Below are positions 1 to 26,786 of a stretch of 26,786 nucleotides of DNA, piece by piece. Made by a program: the position numbers and the translations under genes. Numbering within the stretch: position 1 is the first letter of the stretch; each line of letters begins with the position of its first letter. This stretch comes from an uncultured Thermoplasmata archaeon (GTDB lineage Archaea; Thermoplasmatota; Thermoplasmata; RBG-16-68-12), in contig CAVYJM010000003.1 of NCBI GenBank assembly GCA_963768855.1, positions 1 to 26,786 of the forward strand, read 5' to 3'. The notes beneath the pieces were generated by a model. The model had not been told where the DNA came from. It saw only the letters and a list, made by a program, of their open reading frames with translations, and did not search any database.

Positions 1-42
1 CCGCGAGCTTTATGGCGGGACCCCCCGTTGGAGGCCGCGCCC

Positions 43-981
43 ATGATCGAGGTCCGAGGACTCACGAAGGTCTACACCCGCGCGCGCGGGCAGGGCGCCA
101 AGGCCCTGGACGGCGCGACCTTCACGGTCCCGGACAGGAGCATCTTCGGATTCCTCGGGCCGAACGGCGCGGGGAAGACGACGACGATCCGGATTCTGGC
201 GACGATCCTCGAGCCGACGGAGGGCACCGCGATCGTCGAGGGCCACGACGTGCGCACAGATCCGCTCGCGGTCAAGGGCGCGATCGGCTACATGCCCGAA
301 TACCCCGGCTACTATCCCACGATGACCGCGGAGGAGCACCTCGACTACTGGGGCCGTTTCTACCACATGCCGAAGGCGGAACGGGCCAAGCGGGGCAAGG
401 AGCTCCTCGACCTCGTGGGCCTGGGCCAGGAGCGCGCGAAGAAGGTGAAGGCCTACAGCCATGGGATGCTCAAACGCCTCGGCCTGGCGCAGGCGCTCCT
501 CCATGACCCGCGCGTCTTGATCCTGGACGAACCCGCGGGCGGGCTCGACCCGTACGGGATCATCTTCTTCCGCAAGCTGATGAAGGACCTGAACCGCGAG
601 GGGAAGACGATCCTCCTCGCCTCCCACATCCTCTCCGAGGTCGCCCAGACCTGCACCCACGTCGGCGTGATCGACAAGGGGAAGATCGTCGCGGTCGACA
701 CGACCGAGGCGCTCCTGTCCCGCATCGGCGGCGCAGGGGTGCGCTGCCTCATCGAGGCGCCGAGCGTCCCGGACGCGGCCCTGCGCGGCCTCCTCGACAT
801 CAGCCACGTGAAGGATGTGGTTCGCACGGACTGGGGCCTCATCGTCACGATGGACAAGGACGCCCGGGCCGCGGTCAACGCGTTCCTCGTCGGCCTCGGC
901 GTGCCCGTGGTAGGCGTGAAGCTCGCGGAGGTCACGCTCGAGGACGCCTTCCTCTCGCTCACGGGAGGCGGGCCGACGTGA
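43..981 (+). CDS. ABC-2 type exporter ATP-binding protein (312 aa; alternative TTG start at 28)
   Basis: Walker A GPNGAGKT, Q-loop GYMPE, signature YSHGM, Walker B ILDEP, H-loop LASH. Stop overlaps the next start (GTGA, 978-981). Confidence 0.95.
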   Translation: MIEVRGLTKVYTRARGQGAKALDGATFTVPDRSIFGFLGPNGAGKTTTIRILATILEPTEGTAIVEGHDVRTDPLAVKGAIGYMPEYPGYYPTMTAEEHLDYWGRFYHMPKAERAKRGKELLDLVGLGQERAKKVKAYSHGMLKRLGLAQALLHDPRVLILDEPAGGLDPYGIIFFRKLMKDLNREGKTILLASHILSEVAQTCTHVGVIDKGKIVAVDTTEALLSRIGGAGVRCLIEAPSVPDAALRGLLDISHVKDVVRTDWGLIVTMDKDARAAVNAFLVGLGVPVVGVKLAEVTLEDAFLSLTGGGPT

Positions 982-2408
982 GCTTCGACCCGCGGGATGT
1001 GTTCCGCGGATCGCTCATCGTCGCGGGGCGCGACCTTCGCTCGAACGCGCGCGGCCTCAAGGTATGGATCATCTCAGGGCTCACCCTCCTGGCGATCCTC
1101 GGAGCGGCGTTCGGGATCGGTGGGCTCACGTCAGGGGGTCCGTCCGTCACCTCGCAGTACGTCCTCTGGGCATCTGCCTACTGGCCGGCGAACAACTCGA
1201 CGGGAGGCGTCGTCGTGTGGGTGAGCGACTATCTCGGCGCCCCGCGCGCGGGACAGGTCGTCCTCCTGGGAGAGCCGTACTCGCCCGCTGCTCAGAACAC
1301 GAGCTTCGTGGAACGCGCGCGACTCACGACGAACGCGACGGGATGGGGCACGTTCGCCAACCTGACTGCGGGTACCTGGCCCCTCCGGATCACCGTGGGC
1401 GTGCTGAACATCCCCGGAGCTGTCGGCATCCCGCCTCAACGGCCCGCCGAGAACCTGACCGTGACGGTCCAGCAGTTCGACCTCATCGGCGACGGTGCGG
1501 GGCGGGATGTGAGCCTCCACGCGATGTGGGCGGACGGGACGCCCGCCCGGGATGCCCAGGTCGCGGCGAACGGGACTGGCGTGGGCGTCACGGATCGCAA
1601 CGGCTTCCTGTACAAACGATTCGGCGACGGCAACTGGGGGTTGACGGTTACCGCCCGTGGCGAGAGCTGGGGACAGTCGGTAGCGGTCCACCCGTCCCCT
1701 CTCGCGATCCTTCCGTTCCTCCAGGGACCCGACGCGCTCCTCCTCTTTCTCGGGGTCGCGCTGATGGGTCTGTTCGCGCCGATCATCGCGATCGCCATGT
1801 CCTACGACGCGGTCGCAAAGGAGCGGATGCAGGGCAGCCTTGAGCTCCTCCTCGCGCGCCCCGCCTCCCGAGCGGGAATCGCGATCGGGAAGTTCATCGG
1901 GTCGTTCCTCTCCGTCGGACTGCCGATGCTCGGCGTCCTGCTCGGAGCCGTGGTCGGCGTCGCAGGGGTTTCGGGGAAGTGGCCCGACGTGGTCTTCGTC
2001 GCCGCCTTCGTCGTCGGGACCCTGGGCCTGATCGCGGTCTACGTGCTGATCATGCAGATCTTCTCGACCCTCGCGAAGTCCGCGGGCACGGCGATCCTCT
2101 CGGCCCTCGTCGTCTGGATCGTGTTCAACATCGTGTGGAACCTCGTGTTCCTGGCGGTGGAGTCGGCCTTCCGGATCGAGGGCGGGACGCCGGCCGCCTT
2201 TACGCTCAGCACGATCACGACCCTGTTCAACCCGAACGGGGTGTACCAGCTCCTGGTCACCACGTTCGTGCCCGCGTCCGCGCTGGGCCTCTTCGGCACG
2301 ACGGGAGGCGGGAGCCTGCCGGACTGGGTCGGGCCGGTCGCCATGGTCGTCTGGATTGCCGTCCTGCTCGTCCTCGCCGTCCTCGTGTTCCGCAAGCGGA
2401 TCGTCTGA
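978..2408 (+). CDS. ABC-2 type permease (ABC2_membrane_2/NosY-like) with a large extracellular insertion
   Basis: GGAGG at 964-968 and GTGA coupling to the ATPase. One N-terminal TM, a ~200-aa soluble loop, then the motif YDAVAKERMQGSLELLLARP...GKF and about 5 TMs. Confidence 0.9.
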   Translation: MSFDPRDVFRGSLIVAGRDLRSNARGLKVWIISGLTLLAILGAAFGIGGLTSGGPSVTSQYVLWASAYWPANNSTGGVVVWVSDYLGAPRAGQVVLLGEPYSPAAQNTSFVERARLTTNATGWGTFANLTAGTWPLRITVGVLNIPGAVGIPPQRPAENLTVTVQQFDLIGDGAGRDVSLHAMWADGTPARDAQVAANGTGVGVTDRNGFLYKRFGDGNWGLTVTARGESWGQSVAVHPSPLAILPFLQGPDALLLFLGVALMGLFAPIIAIAMSYDAVAKERMQGSLELLLARPASRAGIAIGKFIGSFLSVGLPMLGVLLGAVVGVAGVSGKWPDVVFVAAFVVGTLGLIAVYVLIMQIFSTLAKSAGTAILSALVVWIVFNIVWNLVFLAVESAFRIEGGTPAAFTLSTITTLFNPNGVYQLLVTTFVPASALGLFGTTGGGSLPDWVGPVAMVVWIAVLLVLAVLVFRKRIV

Positions 2409-2412
2409 GCGA

Positions 2413-2438
2413 CCGCCCGGGCGGATGTGGGCCATCCG
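2413..2438. repeat. Palindrome CCGCCCGGGCGG (2413-2424) and overlapping hairpin CGGATG/CATCCG (2422-2438); possible terminator
   Basis: Read directly; begins 4 nt after the permease stop. Confidence 0.5.
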
Positions 2439-2464
2439 ACCTCGAGATTCGGGCGTGAATTGGG

Positions 2465-2533
2465 ATTACTATCTTAATAGTATTCCGCCGATTGTGTGAC
2501 TATCACTTCGCGAAGTGTACAATGACCCTTAAG
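2465..2533 (+). promoter_or_regulatory. AT-rich promoter region of the GT2 gene with two dyads and TATA-like boxes
   Basis: TACTAT-ctta-ATAGTA (2467-2482), perfect 14-bp palindrome CACTTCGCGAAGTG (2504-2517), CTTAAG (2528-2533). Confidence 0.55.
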
Positions 2534-2553
2534 AAGCACGGAGGTGCAAGTCG

Positions 2554-4194
2554 GTGTACAAGGAGACCCCGCGGTTGACGATGGAAGGCCGTTCTGTCGC
2601 GCAGCGCCGCTTTGCCAACCGCTTCTTCGTCCTGGTCTTCGCCATCTGGATCGGCGCCGTTGCCATCTTCGCCGGCACGACGGTGAACTTCCGCTCCTGG
2701 ATCAGCGTCCTCCAGTTCGGGCTGATGGTGTTCTTCCTGTTCAGCTTCGCAATCGTGTTCTCGAAGCGCGTCGTCTCCCTCTTCGTGAAGCCGTACCCGC
2801 TCCCCAAGCTCGACTCCCTCGCGAGGCAGCCGCGCGTCGCCCTCCTCTACACGACCATGAACGACGTTGTCCCGGACTGCGTGGAGGCGATCCGCCAGAC
2901 GTACCCGGTGGACGTCTACATGCTGGACGACTCCTCGGACCCGTACAGGCGAGCCACCGTCGACGACCTGGCGCGCAAGCATGGGTTCCGGATCCTCCGC
3001 CGCCCCGAGCGCAAGGGGTTCAAGGCGGGCGCAATCAACGGCTGGCTCCGGCAGTTCGGCGCGCAGTACGACTACTTCGTCCTCTTGGACGCGGACTCGA
3101 TCCTCCCGCCCGACTGGGTCGCGGAGGCCCTGAAGTACGCGGAGCATCCGGAGAACCGGGACCTCGCGATCTTCCAGGGTCTCATCAACATCTGGAACAC
3201 GGACCGCCCGTTCCCCCGCGCGCTCGCTGCGACGACCCTCCTCGGCCAGGACGAGTGGGAGCGTCGGGTCAGCGGCTACGTGGGCGCGGTGTTCTGCTAC
3301 GGGCACAACGTCATGCTGCGGACGAAGCCGGTCCTGGAGATCGGCGGGTTCGTCGAGGACTATGTGTCCGAGGACTTCGCGACGGCCGTGAAGCTCGCGT
3401 CGGCGGGCCACGGCTCCGTGTTCGTGCCCCTCCACACCTGGGAGGCCATGCCCGAGAACGTCCGCGGGTTCGTGAAGCGGCAGACCAAGTGGACGCGCGG
3501 GTCGATGGAGTTCTGGTCGTTCGTGCCCCCGGCCCGGCTGCCGTGGTGGAAGAAGGTCTTCCTCTACACGACCCCGATGAATCACGTGGCCTATATCACG
3601 ATCATGTTCGCGATGGTCGCGGCCGTATTCGGCCGCGTCTCGACGCCCGGGGCGTTCTTCGCGTTCGGCCAGAACCTCCTCGTCGAGCCGATCGCGTACA
3701 TCTGGTCGATCAACCTCTTCCGTTTCATCATCGTCATGTCCCTCATCACGTCCGTCTTCACGGTCGCGAAGCTCGTCCAGGTGCGGCTGGGCTTCTGGCG
3801 GTACTACCGGGCCCGGACCCTGAGCAAGGCGATCGGGGCGATCATGCTGCCCCACGAGATCCGGGCGATGCTCATGTACCTCGTCGACCCGCGGAGGAAG
3901 TTCCCCGTGACGCCCAAGGACGAGCCGCCGATGACGATGCGGGAGATCCTCCACGTCGGCCGCGGGACCGTCGCGCTCGTCGCCGTCATGGCCCTCGGCC
4001 TCACGATGTGGAACCCCGTCGGGCTGTGGTACAACGCCCTCTGGTTCCTGTCGTTCATCACCGCCCCCTTCGTCCTCTACTACTACTGCGGCCCGCTGAC
4101 CCGGCCCGCGGACCCGACGGGACAGGGACCGCGGGACCTGCTTGCCGACCCGAGGATCCGGACGAGCGTGGACGGCGCCGTTTCAAGGATTTGA
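2554..4194 (+). CDS. Membrane-bound processive family 2 glycosyltransferase (OpgH/MdoH- or BcsA-like glycan synthase), 546 aa
   Basis: GGAGGTG 7 nt before the GTG (alternative ATG at 2581). 2 N-terminal TMs; motifs LDDS, FKAG, LDADS (DxD), GHN, SED and QTKW (QxxRW-like); several C-terminal TMs. Confidence 0.88.
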   Translation: MYKETPRLTMEGRSVAQRRFANRFFVLVFAIWIGAVAIFAGTTVNFRSWISVLQFGLMVFFLFSFAIVFSKRVVSLFVKPYPLPKLDSLARQPRVALLYTTMNDVVPDCVEAIRQTYPVDVYMLDDSSDPYRRATVDDLARKHGFRILRRPERKGFKAGAINGWLRQFGAQYDYFVLLDADSILPPDWVAEALKYAEHPENRDLAIFQGLINIWNTDRPFPRALAATTLLGQDEWERRVSGYVGAVFCYGHNVMLRTKPVLEIGGFVEDYVSEDFATAVKLASAGHGSVFVPLHTWEAMPENVRGFVKRQTKWTRGSMEFWSFVPPARLPWWKKVFLYTTPMNHVAYITIMFAMVAAVFGRVSTPGAFFAFGQNLLVEPIAYIWSINLFRFIIVMSLITSVFTVAKLVQVRLGFWRYYRARTLSKAIGAIMLPHEIRAMLMYLVDPRRKFPVTPKDEPPMTMREILHVGRGTVALVAVMALGLTMWNPVGLWYNALWFLSFITAPFVLYYYCGPLTRPADPTGQGPRDLLADPRIRTSVDGAVSRI

Positions 4195-20438: not shown

Positions 20439-21536
20439 ATGGGACGGCCGGTTCTCCGCCTCGCGACTCGCATCAACCGCCGCACGCGGTGGACCGCGTG
20501 GGCCATCGCGTTCGCCTGCATGGTCCTCGTCGGCTCCTTGAGCCTCGTCGATGGCTTGTCCGCGGGGGTCGATTCCGTCACCGCGCGGTTCTCGACGGGC
20601 CCCACCGTGTATCTCCATGGCGACGACCTGCTCACGAGCTCGATCGATGCGAATTCCCTCGTCGCCCCCCTTGCGGACTATGCGGTCCTCCGCGTGCATC
20701 GGGGCACGCTCTCGCTCAACGGCACGTCCCTCCCTGTCGTCGTGGCCTCGCTGACCCAGGTCCACGCCGGCAACGCGAGCGATCCCTTCCCGAGAGGCGC
20801 GCAGGACGTCGCGATCGACTCGGGCCTGCGGGCGCAGATCGTCGCGACGAGCGGCCCTCTCGGCCCGACCGTCAACTTGACCCTCTTCGGCCTCCCGCCC
20901 CAGGCCCTCGCGGTGGCTCCCGCTCCCGCTGCCCGTCCGGCCTTCCTCCCGGACACGTGGGCGTGGGTGCGGTCCGAGTTCCTCCTGGCGTTGGACCCGG
21001 CCCAGGGCGGACCCGTCCAGGCCGTGGTCACGCCCGCCCCGCTGGACCCGACGCTCGCGGCGCGGCTCGGCCTCAGCCCGCTGCAGACCGTCGGCGCGAT
21101 CGGCTTCACCCGGGCGAGCATCTCCGAGGCTCGCTCCGTCCTCCTGAGTCTCGCGCCCGTCCTCGCCGTGGTCATCGGCCTCCTCGTGTTCAGCGCGATG
21201 GGACTTGAAGTCGCTCAGCGGCGGGAGGAGATCCGGACCCTGCGCAGCCTCGGGGCCGCCCCTGCGACGGTCGTCGCGGTGTACGAAGGCCAGGCGCTGT
21301 TGCTCGCGATCCTCGGAGCGACCCTGGGCTCCGCGCTCGGGATCGTCGTCGCGCACGCGGTCGTTTCCTTCGCGCCTCTGGCCGGACTGCCCAACCTGGT
21401 CCTCCTCGGTCCCCCGCTCGTCCCCGTGGCCCTGGCGTACGGCCTCGCGCTCGCCGCGGCGTGCCTCGCCGGACTCGGGCCTGCCCTCCGTGCGATGCGC
21501 CTGGCCCGCGGGACGCCGGAGGTGAGACCGTCCTGA
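20439..21536 (+). CDS. FtsX/LolC-type (type VII ABC) permease 1 (365 aa)
   Basis: TM1, extracellular domain, then QRREEIRTLRSLGA and three TMs ending GPALRAMR. Confidence 0.88.
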   Translation: MGRPVLRLATRINRRTRWTAWAIAFACMVLVGSLSLVDGLSAGVDSVTARFSTGPTVYLHGDDLLTSSIDANSLVAPLADYAVLRVHRGTLSLNGTSLPVVVASLTQVHAGNASDPFPRGAQDVAIDSGLRAQIVATSGPLGPTVNLTLFGLPPQALAVAPAPAARPAFLPDTWAWVRSEFLLALDPAQGGPVQAVVTPAPLDPTLAARLGLSPLQTVGAIGFTRASISEARSVLLSLAPVLAVVIGLLVFSAMGLEVAQRREEIRTLRSLGAAPATVVAVYEGQALLLAILGATLGSALGIVVAHAVVSFAPLAGLPNLVLLGPPLVPVALAYGLALAAACLAGLGPALRAMRLARGTPEVRPS

Positions 21537-22735
21537 CGAACCGCCGCGCGTTCGCGGGCCTCCTGCTGTGCGCGTTCCTCCTCGGGCTCACGTGGCCCCT
21601 GCTGTCGGCGCTGCCGGCCGTGCCCAATGCGGTGCTCGGAGGGAACGTGTACGTGATCACGCAGGGGACGGGTGCCTACTCGATCAACGACAGCCTTGTG
21701 CAGAACCTCTCCGCCCAGGGGTGGGCCCGCACGGTGAGCCCGGAGATCTTCTCCCTGGGCACGCTCTTCGGCTTGCCCGTCGTCGTCCGCGGCGTCGACC
21801 CCGTCGCGTTCCTGCGCATCGAGGGCGCGACGGCGCCACCGCCCGGGTCGCTGTCCCTCTCGTGGGCCCTCGCGGGCTCCGGTCTCGAGGACCGCGCCGG
21901 CCTGGCCTCGGGGGAAGAGCTGACTCTGGTGGGGTCGTCGATCTCGCGGCTGGGCGTGGTCCCGCTCGCCGGTGTGTTCCGCACCGCGACCGCGGCGAAC
22001 GACGAACTCCTGGTCGACTTCGGCACCGCCCGCTTCCTGACGGGCGTAGGCGCGAACGTCTATCATACGATCCGCGTGCAGACGGACGATCCCTCCGCGC
22101 TGCTCGCGTTCCTCCAGGCGCGGGGCGCGAGCGCCCATGTCACCGGACCGTCCGGCAACGTCGGCGGGGCGAACACCGCGCCGCTCCCGACGGATCCGCG
22201 GATCATCAACCTCTTCCTGCGCTACGGGCTCGGCCCCCTGCCCGGGGACTACGTGGCGGAGGGGATCGCGGAGGCCACGAACTCCGTGCAGGTTGTCGCC
22301 TGGGGGCTCGAGGTCCTCGTCCTGCTCCTGGTGACGATGGGCCTGCATGCGGTCCAGGCGCGCGCGTTCGCGGATCGGGAGGCGACCGTGGGCGTGCTCC
22401 GCGCGCTCGGCGCCCCGAACGGCTGGATGTACCTCCGGGCTCTGCGGGAGACCGTGCCCTTGGCCACCGGGGCAGGGCTCTTGGGATCCCTCTTGGGCTT
22501 CGCGGCCGCCCTCCTCCTTCCCTCCAGCGCTGCGATTGCGGTCTTCGGTCACGCGGTCCGCGTCGCCTTCGACCCGCTCGGCATCCTCCTCGTCGCGGCC
22601 GCGGTCCTCGTCGTCTCGCTCGCCTCGGCGCTCCGGCTCGTGCGGCGGGCGATGCAGGAACGGCCCGCGGAGGCGATTCGCGGGACGCCCGCCCTCACGC
22701 CGCCTCCGTCTCTGGAGGTGGTCCTGCGCGAATGA
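21533..22735 (+). CDS. FtsX/LolE-type permease 2 (400 aa), probable CTG start
   Basis: GGAGGTGA (21518-21525) lies 7 nt before an in-frame CTG that overlaps the upstream stop (CTGA). Motifs DREATVGVLRALGA and RPAEAIRG. Confidence 0.82.
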   Translation: MTNRRAFAGLLLCAFLLGLTWPLLSALPAVPNAVLGGNVYVITQGTGAYSINDSLVQNLSAQGWARTVSPEIFSLGTLFGLPVVVRGVDPVAFLRIEGATAPPPGSLSLSWALAGSGLEDRAGLASGEELTLVGSSISRLGVVPLAGVFRTATAANDELLVDFGTARFLTGVGANVYHTIRVQTDDPSALLAFLQARGASAHVTGPSGNVGGANTAPLPTDPRIINLFLRYGLGPLPGDYVAEGIAEATNSVQVVAWGLEVLVLLLVTMGLHAVQARAFADREATVGVLRALGAPNGWMYLRALRETVPLATGAGLLGSLLGFAAALLLPSSAAIAVFGHAVRVAFDPLGILLVAAAVLVVSLASALRLVRRAMQERPAEAIRGTPALTPPPSLEVVLRE

Positions 22736-24366
22736 AGGGGCACCTCGCCCTGGTCGGGTCGCTCTACTGCCTCGCCCTGGCCTTGCGTCTCGTGCCCCTG
22801 ACGTTCTCGCCGCTACCGTACAACATCGACGGGTTCCCGCTCGCGCACATCGCGGCCCAGATCACGTCGACGGGTTCGTGGCAGATCCACCCGCAGGACC
22901 CGAACGCGTACAACGAGATGATGCCCGTCTACTCCCTCGTCTGGTCGTCCGCCTCCCAGCTGGCCGGCCTCGACCCGCTCGCGTACCTCCAGACGGTCCT
23001 CCCGCTCGTCCTCGCGACGGTGGTCCTCCCCGCGTACCTCCTCGGCGTGAAGGCGACCGGCCATCCGGCGGCCGGCTTCGCGGCGGGCCTGTTCATCGCG
23101 TCGTTCGGGAGCTTCCTCTCCGTCACGACCATGGGGATGAAGGAGTCCGTGGCCCTCGTCCTCCTGCCCACCGTGGTCCTCCTCTTCTCGGAGCGGCGCG
23201 ACCCGCGCAAACGCGGGCTGGCCTTCCTCCTCCTGCTCCTCCTGCCGTTCCTCCACCAGCTCTCCGACTTCCTGATCCTCGGGATGGTCGCCGCGCTCGT
23301 CGTGCTCACGCACGCGCGCGCGGTCCAGCGGGGCCGGTTCTCCGTGCGGTCCCTCCTCCTGGACATCGCGACGGGTCCAGGTCCCGCGGTCGTCGCCTAC
23401 GTCTACTATGTGACCGTGGACATGCCCGACCTGAGCGCGGTCACCTCGCCGGACGCGCTCGCCCTGTTCCTCGGCGTGACCCTCCTGCTGTCCGCCCTCC
23501 TGGTCCACATGACCCGCCCGGCGTCCGTGCGGACCGGCGCGCGGCTCGTGCGCCCGGCCGGCCCGATCCTGTTCGTGCCCGTCGTCGCGTTCGCGGCGCT
23601 CTTGGTCAACGCCCGCATGGACCTCTTCGCGGGCGTGCTCGAGACGCAACCCGCCCTCGAGCCGATCATGGTCGCCGTCGTCGCGCTCGTCGCGTTCGCG
23701 TTCCTCGGATACCAGCTCCTCCGGCGGACGGCCAACCGCTTCTCCGACCTCGTGATCGCGATGGGCATCGCTCCCGTCGCGCTGGTCCTCTTCGCCTTCC
23801 TCCGCGGACTCGACGGCCTGAGCCAGGTCCTCGTGTATCGGAGCTTCGACTTCCTGGACTACGGGCTCGCGGTGGCCGTCGGCGCGGGGTTCGCGCTCGT
23901 ATGGCGGCGCCTGCGGCGGCGGGACGCGGCGCGGCTCCTCCTGGCCGCGGGCTTCCTCGGCATCCTGCTCGCCACGACGCCCATCGCCTGGAACACCCAG
24001 GCCGTGTTCGGCGTGGACAACGTCACGACACCCTCCGAGTACCAGGCCCTCGCCGTCCTCGCCTCCCTGCATGCGGGGAACGTCACGACGGACCAGCGGC
24101 TCGCAGACGTCGGGCGAATGTGGTTCGGGCTCTCCACGGATCCGAACCTGCCCTTCGTCCTTCAGGGAAACCGGACCGTCTCGGGCCCTGCCTTCGCCCT
24201 CGTCATGGACCGGTGGACGACGGTCGGCGCGCAGATCCATCCGCAACCGAACGTCGTGCTGTCCGTCCCCGCGTTGGTGGCGTTCCTGAGTGCGAACCGG
24301 ATCGTCTACGTCGCGGGATCCGTCGGGGATCGGATCTACGTCGTCCAGCTCGCGGGATTGGGATAG
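22732..24366 (+). CDS. Polytopic membrane protein, probable GT-C fold glycosyltransferase-like (544 aa)
   Basis: ATGA coupling and GGAGGTG. TM1 (ALRL), then a loop with an acidic residue (PLPYNIDG...H...G...Y...P), about 12-13 TMs, PFLHQL, and a C-terminal soluble domain (TPSEYQAL...VTTD). The layout resembles PMT/STT3-like proteins. The CDS is secure; the function is inferred. Confidence 0.7.
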   Translation: MKGHLALVGSLYCLALALRLVPLTFSPLPYNIDGFPLAHIAAQITSTGSWQIHPQDPNAYNEMMPVYSLVWSSASQLAGLDPLAYLQTVLPLVLATVVLPAYLLGVKATGHPAAGFAAGLFIASFGSFLSVTTMGMKESVALVLLPTVVLLFSERRDPRKRGLAFLLLLLLPFLHQLSDFLILGMVAALVVLTHARAVQRGRFSVRSLLLDIATGPGPAVVAYVYYVTVDMPDLSAVTSPDALALFLGVTLLLSALLVHMTRPASVRTGARLVRPAGPILFVPVVAFAALLVNARMDLFAGVLETQPALEPIMVAVVALVAFAFLGYQLLRRTANRFSDLVIAMGIAPVALVLFAFLRGLDGLSQVLVYRSFDFLDYGLAVAVGAGFALVWRRLRRRDAARLLLAAGFLGILLATTPIAWNTQAVFGVDNVTTPSEYQALAVLASLHAGNVTTDQRLADVGRMWFGLSTDPNLPFVLQGNRTVSGPAFALVMDRWTTVGAQIHPQPNVVLSVPALVAFLSANRIVYVAGSVGDRIYVVQLAGLG

Positions 24367-24428
24367 ACCGACTCTCTGGGCAAGGGCTAATATGGACGCT
24401 TTCCCTACATCGAGACCGGTCTCGGAGG

Positions 24429-26585
24429 TTGAGGCTCGCGCGGGTTGTTCTGGTCGCGATGACGATCGTGATCGCCTCGCTGGCCCTCCCGTTGACTCCT
24501 GCCCGCGCATCCCCCGCCGCGACGACCGTCCGCTCCCTGCAGCCTCACCTGCCCATCGACATCGAGGGCGATGCCGGCTTCACCTCGTCCAACGGGGTCG
24601 TGGGAGGCCAGGGGACCCTCGCAGACCCGTATCTCATTGCGGACTGGGCAATCACGTCGCCTCCTGCGCTCGGCGTGCAGGTCCGGAACACCCGCCTCCA
24701 TGCGGTGTTCCAGAACGTGTCCGTCTCGAATGCGCCCATCGACGCGTTCTACTTCTTCAACGCGACCAATGTCACCCTGTCGAACGTGACGGCCTATGTG
24801 AACGAGGGGGAGGGCATCCGGTTCGAGGAATCCCATGCGTTCTCGATCGTCGAGAGCAACCTCACGGCGAACCTGGCCGGCCTCGTCCTGATCAACTCCG
24901 CGGATGGGATCGTCCGCGGCACGAGCTTCACCGCGAACTCGGGGGACGGCGTCGCGATCACCGGATCCCCGAACGTCACGCTGGAGGACAACGACTTCCT
25001 CTACAACGGCTTCAGCGGGGCGGGCCACGGGATCGACTTGACCTTCACCACGGGTGACGTGGTCCGCGCGAACCGCTTCATCGCGAACGGGGTCGTTCTC
25101 GCCGGCGACAGTTTGCCGTTCTTCGACTCCCACACGATCACGCCGGACAACCTCGTCGCGGGGCTCCCCATCCTGTACGAGAAGGACTGCAGCGGGCTCA
25201 CCCTGGCCGAGATGACCCTTGGGCAGCTCCTCCTGGCGGGCTGCCGCCACGTCCGCATCTCGAACCTCACCGTGACCGGAGGGGACGTCGGCGTCGAGAT
25301 CGCATTCGGTACCGATGCCGTCCTGGGCCCGGGCGTTCTCGTTTCCGGCGCAGCCATCGGAGTCGAGCTCCTGCAAACCTCCGCGGTCCAAGTCATGGGC
25401 GTGCAGATCCTCAACACCGGGGTCGGCATCGAAATCGACGCCTCGACCGACGTGCGGGTCTCCGCCTCGAAGATCTCGGCCCCGTTCGCCAACGCGGATC
25501 CGAACGACGGCGTGATCATCCGGGACTCCGACCGAGTGAACGTCACGGGCAACGTGATCCGTCGTCACCGCAACGCCATCTTCGTCAGCGGCTCGGGGAA
25601 CCTGAGCCTCGTCGACAACCTTGCGGGCCGGAGCGTCCTCGGCCTCAACGCGTCCGGATCTCGCGATTTCCAGGTGTCGGGGAACCTCATTGTCCAGGAC
25701 TCCGCGGGACTGCGTCTTGAAAACGTGACGAACGCGACGTTCGCGCAAAACGCACTCCTGGGCATCGCGACGACGGGCGCGAACCTCTCGGCCTCATCCG
25801 GGGTCGAGTTCGTCCACAACCTCTTCGGCGGATCGGTCGACAACGCCTACGACGCACAGGGGAGCCGTGACGCCTGGGATGGAGGCTATCCGGCCGGGGG
25901 GAACTCGTGGGGGAATTACGGGGGCGTCGACGTGTTCCAGGGCGTCGGGCAGAATCTCTCCGGCGCTGACGGGATCGGGGACACGCCGTACATGTTCGAC
26001 GTGAACGCGGTCGACCACTACCCGCTCATGTCCCCGCCGGTGACCGCGGATGTCCCCCCGGAGGCCCTGTTCCTTGTCGGGTTCCCGGAGGGGTATCCCA
26101 TCACCCCCTTCCACGTGACCGCGAACCTCTCGTCGGATCTGGAGGATCCACTGGGAGTCCTCCAGGTGCGGTGGTTCTGGGACGACGACGCGGGAACCCC
26201 GTGGACGGCCACGAAGGACGCGACCCACGTGTTCGGAACGACCGGGGTCCACTCGATCCGCCTCGAGGTGAAGGATTCGGCGGGCCTCACCGACAACTGG
26301 ACGACCCCGATCCTCGTTCTCCCGAAGCCCGACGCCCTCCCGCCCGTCATCCGTTCCGCGCCCCCCGCGAGTGCGGAGGTGGGCCAGCCCATCCCGATCA
26401 CCGCGAACGTCACGGACGCGAGCGCGATCGCGAACGTGACCCTCCTGTACCAAGGCGTTGACGGTGGACCGTTCCGCTCCATCCCGATGCAAATCGAGGA
26501 CAACGGGGCGAACTTCACGGCGACGATTCCCGCGCAGCCGCGCACGGGGACGGTCGTGTACGTGGTCGTCGCGAACGACTCCTGA
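24429..26585 (+). CDS. Secreted surface glycoprotein: parallel beta-helix (NosD/CASH-type) repeats, PKD domain, Ig-like domain; interrupted by TGA (718 aa to the TGA)
   Basis: TTG start gives the signal peptide MRLARVVLVAM...ARA; TATA-like GGGCTAATAT at ~24384-24393. HLPIDIEG...NGV..GQGT..DPY, PbH1-like repeats, GNSW...DGIGDTPY...D.YPL, PKD-like WFWDD...HVF...LEVKD. About 20 N-x-S/T sequons. Confidence 0.85.
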   Translation: MRLARVVLVAMTIVIASLALPLTPARASPAATTVRSLQPHLPIDIEGDAGFTSSNGVVGGQGTLADPYLIADWAITSPPALGVQVRNTRLHAVFQNVSVSNAPIDAFYFFNATNVTLSNVTAYVNEGEGIRFEESHAFSIVESNLTANLAGLVLINSADGIVRGTSFTANSGDGVAITGSPNVTLEDNDFLYNGFSGAGHGIDLTFTTGDVVRANRFIANGVVLAGDSLPFFDSHTITPDNLVAGLPILYEKDCSGLTLAEMTLGQLLLAGCRHVRISNLTVTGGDVGVEIAFGTDAVLGPGVLVSGAAIGVELLQTSAVQVMGVQILNTGVGIEIDASTDVRVSASKISAPFANADPNDGVIIRDSDRVNVTGNVIRRHRNAIFVSGSGNLSLVDNLAGRSVLGLNASGSRDFQVSGNLIVQDSAGLRLENVTNATFAQNALLGIATTGANLSASSGVEFVHNLFGGSVDNAYDAQGSRDAWDGGYPAGGNSWGNYGGVDVFQGVGQNLSGADGIGDTPYMFDVNAVDHYPLMSPPVTADVPPEALFLVGFPEGYPITPFHVTANLSSDLEDPLGVLQVRWFWDDDAGTPWTATKDATHVFGTTGVHSIRLEVKDSAGLTDNWTTPILVLPKPDALPPVIRSAPPASAEVGQPIPITANVTDASAIANVTLLYQGVDGGPFRSIPMQIEDNGANFTATIPAQPRTGTVVYVVVANDS

Positions 26586-26786
26586 GGGAACTCCGCGAGG
26601 GCCCCGGTCGCGGGGTCCTCGCCCGTGCGGATCGTGGACACGTTCACGCCGCTCGTGATCGCTTCGGTGCTCGTCGCGGTTTTCGTCTCCGCCGTCGCGG
26701 TCGCGTTCCTCCTCCTGCGGCGAAGGCGAACACGAGCTCAAGGAGAGCCGCCGCCGACGCGTCCCGCGAGCCCACCGGGCAAGCCT
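26586..26786 (+). other. In-frame continuation after the TGA encoding the end of the Ig-like domain, a TM anchor and RRRR (open to the window end)
   Basis: 67 sense codons: GNSARAPVAGSSPVRIVDTFTPLVIASVLVAVFVSAVAVAFLLLRRRRTRAQGEPPPTRPASPPGKP. Confidence 0.85.
26595..26622 (+). other. 12-bp RNA stem-loop 9 nt downstream of the in-frame TGA
   Basis: GCGAGGGCCCCG-gtcg-CGGGGTCCTCGC: 11 Watson-Crick pairs and one G.U pair. Confidence 0.7.

Follow-up and report, generated by a model that had tools for sequence, protein, structure and literature searches.

A probable strain-specific nonsense allele at an invariant tryptophan codon of an archaeal surface-protein gene

A gene for a putative surface protein lies at the very end of the contig analyzed here, and its reading frame is interrupted by a TGA codon shortly before the segment encoding the membrane anchor. 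The question raised by this locus is whether the codon is a device for making two forms of the protein, a recoded sense codon, a boundary between two genes, a recent mutation, or simply an error in the sequence. The window, by which we mean the whole stretch of 26,786 nucleotides under analysis, corresponds to the entirety of contig C3 of a 24-contig assembly (2.87 Mb, with estimates of 93.6% completeness and 7.7% contamination). Translation of the forward frame from 22347 to 26786 yields VVVANDS, the TGA at 26583-26585, and then GNSARAPVAGSSPVRIVDTFTP, with no further stop up to the last base of the window at 26786. This agrees with a preliminary description of the locus, which had noted an in-frame TGA between VVVANDS and GNSARAP...IVDTFTP followed by a hydrophobic helix of 23 residues (26649-26717), an RRRR cluster (26718-26729), and an open frame to the end of the window. 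Four explanations had been put forward there: (a) programmed read-through, which was favored, (b) insertion of selenocysteine (Sec) or other recoding, (c) a recent nonsense mutation, and (d) an error in sequencing or assembly. As detailed below, a real, very recent, and non-programmed nonsense allele carried by one of the strain haplotypes assembled together appears to be the best explanation, to which we assign a probability of roughly 0.6.

A second copy of the gene in the same assembly provided its intact form. The end of C3 overlaps contig C18, in which the corresponding allele is an unbroken ORF of 776 amino acids (counted from its ATG) that ends in PPGKP and is then closed by a stop codon placed directly after the point matching the end of the window. 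C3 has A at position 26585 where C18 has G, so that the codon reads TGA in the former and TGG (Trp709) in the latter. On the forward strand of C3, we therefore treat 24429-26786 as one gene for a type-I anchored protein that extends as far as the final base of the contig. Its start is either the TTG at 24429 or the ATG at 24459, and the TTG is probably the correct one, since a relative with 91% identity (P0025) begins with MRLARVV; starting at the TTG places MRLARVVLVA ahead of the ATG and supplies a basic n-region that fits a signal peptide. The ORF listed from 22347 was rejected as a high-GC artefact, its real start being one of these two codons. The TAG of the upstream gene is found at 24364-24366, just before the start of the surface-protein gene, and the corresponding ORF of 932 amino acids (21568-24363) has no Pfam match at E ≤ 0.001. 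On the other side, just past the end of the window, the next gene in C18 encodes ribosomal protein S3Ae (L004:3474-4253, minus strand; PF01015 at 6e-70), as befits an archaeon. This protein continues past the Pfam domain for about 60 residues in an unusual acidic and proline-rich C-terminal extension.

The domain organization of the intact allele indicates what lies on each side of the TGA. As judged by eye from the translation, a predicted signal peptide (24429-24509) combines the basic n-region with a hydrophobic core and has ARA before the predicted cleavage point. It is followed by a right-handed parallel beta-helix (24672-25925; PF13229, Beta_helix, at 3.1e-25 and PF05048, NosD, at 4.7e-32), the repeats of which form two blocks in Pfam, and by a PKD domain (26112-26306; PF00801 at 6.5e-06, residues 552-616). 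All three models exceed their own cut-offs, whereas Big_7, which matches residues 633-693 of the last Ig-like beta-sandwich (26355-26636), falls just under its own. The presence of this last domain is also indicated by structure prediction. An AlphaFold2 (AF2) model of residues 521-776, built from 23 sequences, has a mean pLDDT of 83.5 and consists of two beta-sandwiches followed by a long helix (residues 729-760) that includes the transmembrane segment, while Foldseek matched the fold best to tandem Ig/FnIII-like modules, among them the CbhA Fn3-like domain, SiiE BIg, and titin. In the model, the strands of the final Ig-like domain continue up to residue 726 with pLDDT values of ~87-95, and the stop is located in the turn that follows strand 697-707, ahead of strands 712-715 and 721-726 and of the membrane helix. 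Thus, the preliminary description was right to place the stop in a turn of an Ig-like domain within a single gene, with the anchor downstream. The helix is followed by a cytoplasmic tail (26718-26786) in which the RRRR stop-transfer cluster precedes a proline-rich segment ending in PPGKP. An NCBIfam scan of the protein found no match to archaeosortase sorting-signal models such as PGF-CTERM, and about 20 residues follow the basic cluster, whereas a sorting signal is expected at the extreme C terminus. The domain models and the C-terminal transmembrane helix together identify an anchored surface protein of the parallel beta-helix/PKD/Ig-like kind, which resembles archaeal and bacterial NosD-like beta-helix surface proteins in its Beta_helix/NosD repeats, PKD and Ig-like domains, transmembrane helix, and basic cluster. 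It differs from the nitrous-oxide-reductase maturation protein NosD; an assignment as a true NosD was rejected because the protein scores 62.6 bits against TIGR04247, far below the cut-off of 300, and the two have nothing but the beta-helix repeat architecture in common. The family is a large and expanded one in the same order, as five genomes (G025, G027, G031, G036, and G040) each contain 28-44 matches to beta-helix/PKD paralogues.

A stop used for programmed read-through should be conserved among orthologues, and the preliminary description had proposed exactly this comparison. Four species of the same genus yielded full-length orthologues (identities of 68, 55, 54, and 57%) in a search of 40 related genomes; all of these lack a stop, and all have tryptophan in the column, in the form ANDT/S-W-G/E/A-N. 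A search of a protein collection returned 22 homologues, one of which is assigned by NCBI to a Thermoplasmata archaeon, and the 21 closest of these, 754-823 amino acids in length, were aligned with the C18 allele. W709 proved invariant in the 22-23 aligned sequences, along with A705, N706, D707, and N711 (A-N-D-x-W-x-N). Within the 90% identity cluster of four members, the truncated form of 708 amino acids occurs only on C3, while the remaining three members, the C18 allele and two independent proteins, are full length and have the tryptophan. Overall, the stop is present in 1 of ~27 sequences and is absent even from relatives at 91-94% identity, whereas tryptophan is found in all ~26 homologues examined. 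The outcome is precisely the one that the preliminary description had named as refuting: since all orthologues and the C18 haplotype have a sense codon at the site, the recoding interpretation is not upheld. It should be noted that an exact-pattern scan with both alleles had no match in collections of metagenome and genome contigs from which the window's own genome may have been left out, and that a locus search with the full protein yielded a single distant metagenome paralogue (29% identity) and nothing among the genome contigs.

The same alignments bear upon the possibility of two genes, in which a secreted protein would end at 26585 and a small membrane protein would be initiated from a downstream GTG. 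The preliminary description had stated that no start for a separate gene is present; taken literally this is incorrect, as in-frame GTG codons occur 14 and 17 codons past the stop (e.g. at 26625), but its conclusion of one continuous gene is borne out by homology. Every homologue is continuous across the stop position at 754-823 amino acids, the modeled Ig-like sandwich runs straight through it, and an intergenic spacer is absent. We consequently give the two-gene arrangement virtually no weight. The membrane anchor is present in every homologue examined, and the transmembrane helix, the arginine-rich cluster, and the PPG-x-P end are all conserved. Coding constraint in the downstream frame is therefore evident, but the same is expected for the tail of any single ORF, so it does not discriminate among the explanations.

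Programmed read-through of the UGA to yield both secreted and anchored isoforms had been the most attractive option, and several features are in its favor. Among stop codons, UGA is read most readily by tRNA-Trp as a near-cognate, the open downstream frame encodes a conserved anchor, and a strong GC-rich hairpin with a perfect stem of 12 bp and a loop of 4 nt (26595-26622) begins 9 nt downstream, where it could perhaps act as a stimulator. The in-frame UGA, the open and functional-looking frame, and a hairpin after a short spacer are indeed shared with known read-through systems, such as viral gag-pol and coat protein extensions and archaeal insertion of Sec and pyrrolysine (Pyl) (PMC8211752). 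The hairpin lies inside the coding sequence for ARAPVAGSS, however, and exceeds shuffled sequences in stability by only a small margin (z = -1.9; 10 of 200 shuffles fold equally well). It is base-for-base the same in the TGG allele and is reduced to remnants of 4-7 bp in the orthologues, all of which have TGG, which argues that it did not co-evolve with the stop; it appears instead to be a by-product of coding for A-P...G-A/S in a genome of 67% GC. The nucleotide context is equally unremarkable, as TGA-G, the context found here, is the commonest genuine stop context in the genome (608/1414). Thus, neither an RNA structure nor a codon context specific to the stop was found, the former being shared with the TGG allele and the latter being standard. 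In contrast to known read-through systems, the stop is also not conserved, its hairpin exists without it in the sister allele, and neither a dedicated tRNA nor dedicated machinery was found. The preliminary description was correct that option (a) would have been new in archaea, given that, according to a review of archaeal recoding (PMC8211752), Sec and Pyl insertion are the only demonstrated cases of read-through of termination codons in that domain, and this too counts against it. With the stop confined to one sequence of ~27 and missing from a haplotype of 98.8% identity, we regard programmed read-through as very improbable.

Recoding of the TGA, either as Sec or as tryptophan under a reassigned code, fares worse still. 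UGA is the Sec codon and is a tryptophan codon in some reassigned codes, and the homologues do have tryptophan at this position. However, TGA is the most used of the stop codons here, ending 923 of 1302 long coding-like frames (~71%) as well as 12 other coding-like frames within the window, which upholds the earlier remark that it is a normal stop used by at least a dozen other genes here. ARAGORN found no tRNA-Sec in the genome, estimated as 93.6% complete, and no tRNA with a suppressor anticodon (UCA, CUA, or UUA); the tRNA-Trp has the anticodon CCA and carries an intron. Matches to the tRNA-Sec model RF01852 were all below threshold (best score 42.5 bits vs a cut-off of 47), and the three best of them proved upon inspection to be tRNA-Ser. 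SepSecS was likewise not found in the genome at its estimated completeness of 93.6%. Sec is further disfavored by the homologues, which have tryptophan rather than cysteine at a position that forms a structural turn in the extracellular Ig-like domain. Hence, we attach next to no credence to recoding. We also scanned the genome for in-frame stops flanked by coding-like sequence, but nearly all of the 107 instances look like adjacent genes that share a frame by chance, and the scan was set aside as uninformative on either read-through or the error rate.

With options (a) and (b) unsupported, the evidence leaves standing the two that the preliminary description had listed last, a recent TGG-to-TGA mutation and a sequencing or assembly error, and distinguishing between them depends upon how C3 relates to its neighbors. 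Positions 23448-26786 of C3 dovetail with the end of C18 (reverse strand, 175625 down to 172286); the overlap of 3340 bp is 98.8% identical and contains 38 substitutions and 1 indel, i.e. differences at ~1.1% of sites. At the opposite end, the first 4329 bases of C3 dovetail with C15 at 99%, and bases 1-4164 also match C5 at 93%. The chromosome path is thus probably C15-C3-C18. Because both ends of C3 dovetail in this manner, we conclude that the overlap with C18 represents the same locus in a second strain haplotype, the locus having been assembled twice from co-existing strains; such doubly assembled overlaps would also inflate the contamination estimate. The differences between the two copies of the gene are clustered at 24986-25042, 25356-25412, and 26561-26585, with long identical stretches in between, a patchiness that points to a mosaic produced by recombination or to locally diversifying variation in the beta-helix. 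Contig ends elsewhere carry differences of another kind. The C18 copy has an extra base 83 nt from the end of that contig (window 23529/23530, inside the 21526-24366 frame), and the C15 copy has indels 180-320 nt from its end (window 4010-4011 and 4149, inside the 2533-4194 frame). These indels of 1-2 bases interrupt genes that are intact in C3 and are likely either errors at contig ends or frameshift alleles of the other haplotypes.

The TGA itself belongs to a patch of five differences between C3 and C18 (26561-26585), of which three are synonymous, one exchanges serine and threonine, and the last is TGA/TGG. At the other four sites, C3 has C (26561), C (26570), G (26573), and T (26580). Third codon positions account for four of the five changes (at least four out of five would fall there by chance with a probability of 11/243 = 0.045), and the GCG and TCC states of C3 within the patch recur in other species. 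The third positions, the synonymous changes, and the states seen in other species all give the patch the look of natural variation, and about half of the 32 differences within the gene are synonymous as well, much as between strains that recombine in nature. We saw no motif recurring in the sequence that flanks the 38 haplotype differences, as might be left by methylation-linked errors in base calling; this argues against a systematic artefact. Moreover, the divergence of ~1.1% would be well above any plausible rate of substitution errors in the consensus, so that any given difference is more likely to be real. The alternative is that the A at 26585 is a sequencing or assembly error of the consensus, within a final few hundred bases of C3 that would be poorly supported, such that the organism has TGG and an intact protein. 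The codon is only 200 bp from the contig end, the dovetails at both ends were assembled twice from a mixed population, the contamination estimate of 7.7% is consistent with strain mixing, and the C18 copy, which is internal (3.1 kb from its contig end) and better supported, has TGG. The indels at the ends of C15 and C18 in genes that are intact in C3 point in the same direction, and the proximity of the codon to an end, at ends that carry likely errors, weakens the case for a nonsense allele. In addition, polymorphisms that survive seldom include nonsense alleles at invariant residues, which counts against a real allele. On the other hand, the four neighboring differences look like real variation that has been filtered by selection, the haplotype divergence would exceed the expected error, the likely errors at other contig ends are indels rather than substitutions, and a systematic error motif was not seen. 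Judged from the sequences, the balance tips somewhat toward a real nonsense allele; we consider a consensus error less likely, though it is the one competing account of real weight.

If the nonsense allele is real, a single G-to-A transition at 26585 would have converted the invariant Trp709 codon from TGG to TGA in the strain haplotype represented by C3, and the allele would be segregating in the sampled population. It would also have to be recent, since the 201 bases 3' of the stop are identical in the two haplotypes and show no decay. Termination at the TGA would produce a protein of 708 amino acids (counted from the ATG) that is presumably still exported, yet its final Ig-like domain would be missing two strands at the end, and neither the membrane helix nor the tail would be made; the product may be shed, degraded, or unstable. 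Some low-level misreading of the UGA by tRNA-Trp(CCA) may occur and would restore the wild-type residue, although this would be ordinary leakiness rather than a programmed device. We see only a slim chance that the TGA allele is kept at an appreciable frequency for the reason that such leaky decoding restores tryptophan.

The nonsense allele has no substantive difference from an ordinary nonsense polymorphism or nascent pseudogene, with which it shares a single G-to-A change from tryptophan to stop, restriction to one haplotype, the absence of downstream decay, and location in a fast-evolving envelope gene with patchy differences. The finding is therefore of an ordinary kind, namely either a nonsense change specific to one strain or an artefact of assembly, affecting an invariant tryptophan codon in a surface protein of a type that is common in archaea. 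Overall, the interpretation offered in the preliminary description is partly supported. For annotation, we advise a single interrupted ORF of 786 codons (from the TTG at 24429) or 776 codons (from the ATG at 24459), entered as a pseudogene or with a low-quality call rather than as a secreted protein plus an orphan, and the C18 allele should serve as the reference form of the gene. The value of the result lies chiefly in its being negative, as the locus drops out as a possible first case of near-cognate programmed read-through in archaea. Were the improbable leaky-allele reading true, most of the protein would be shed and a little would be anchored, and the locus would represent an incipient, population-level control of isoforms by read-through in an archaeon. 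As it stands, strain heterogeneity accounts for the in-frame stop, in a metagenome-assembled genome with doubly assembled contig ends.
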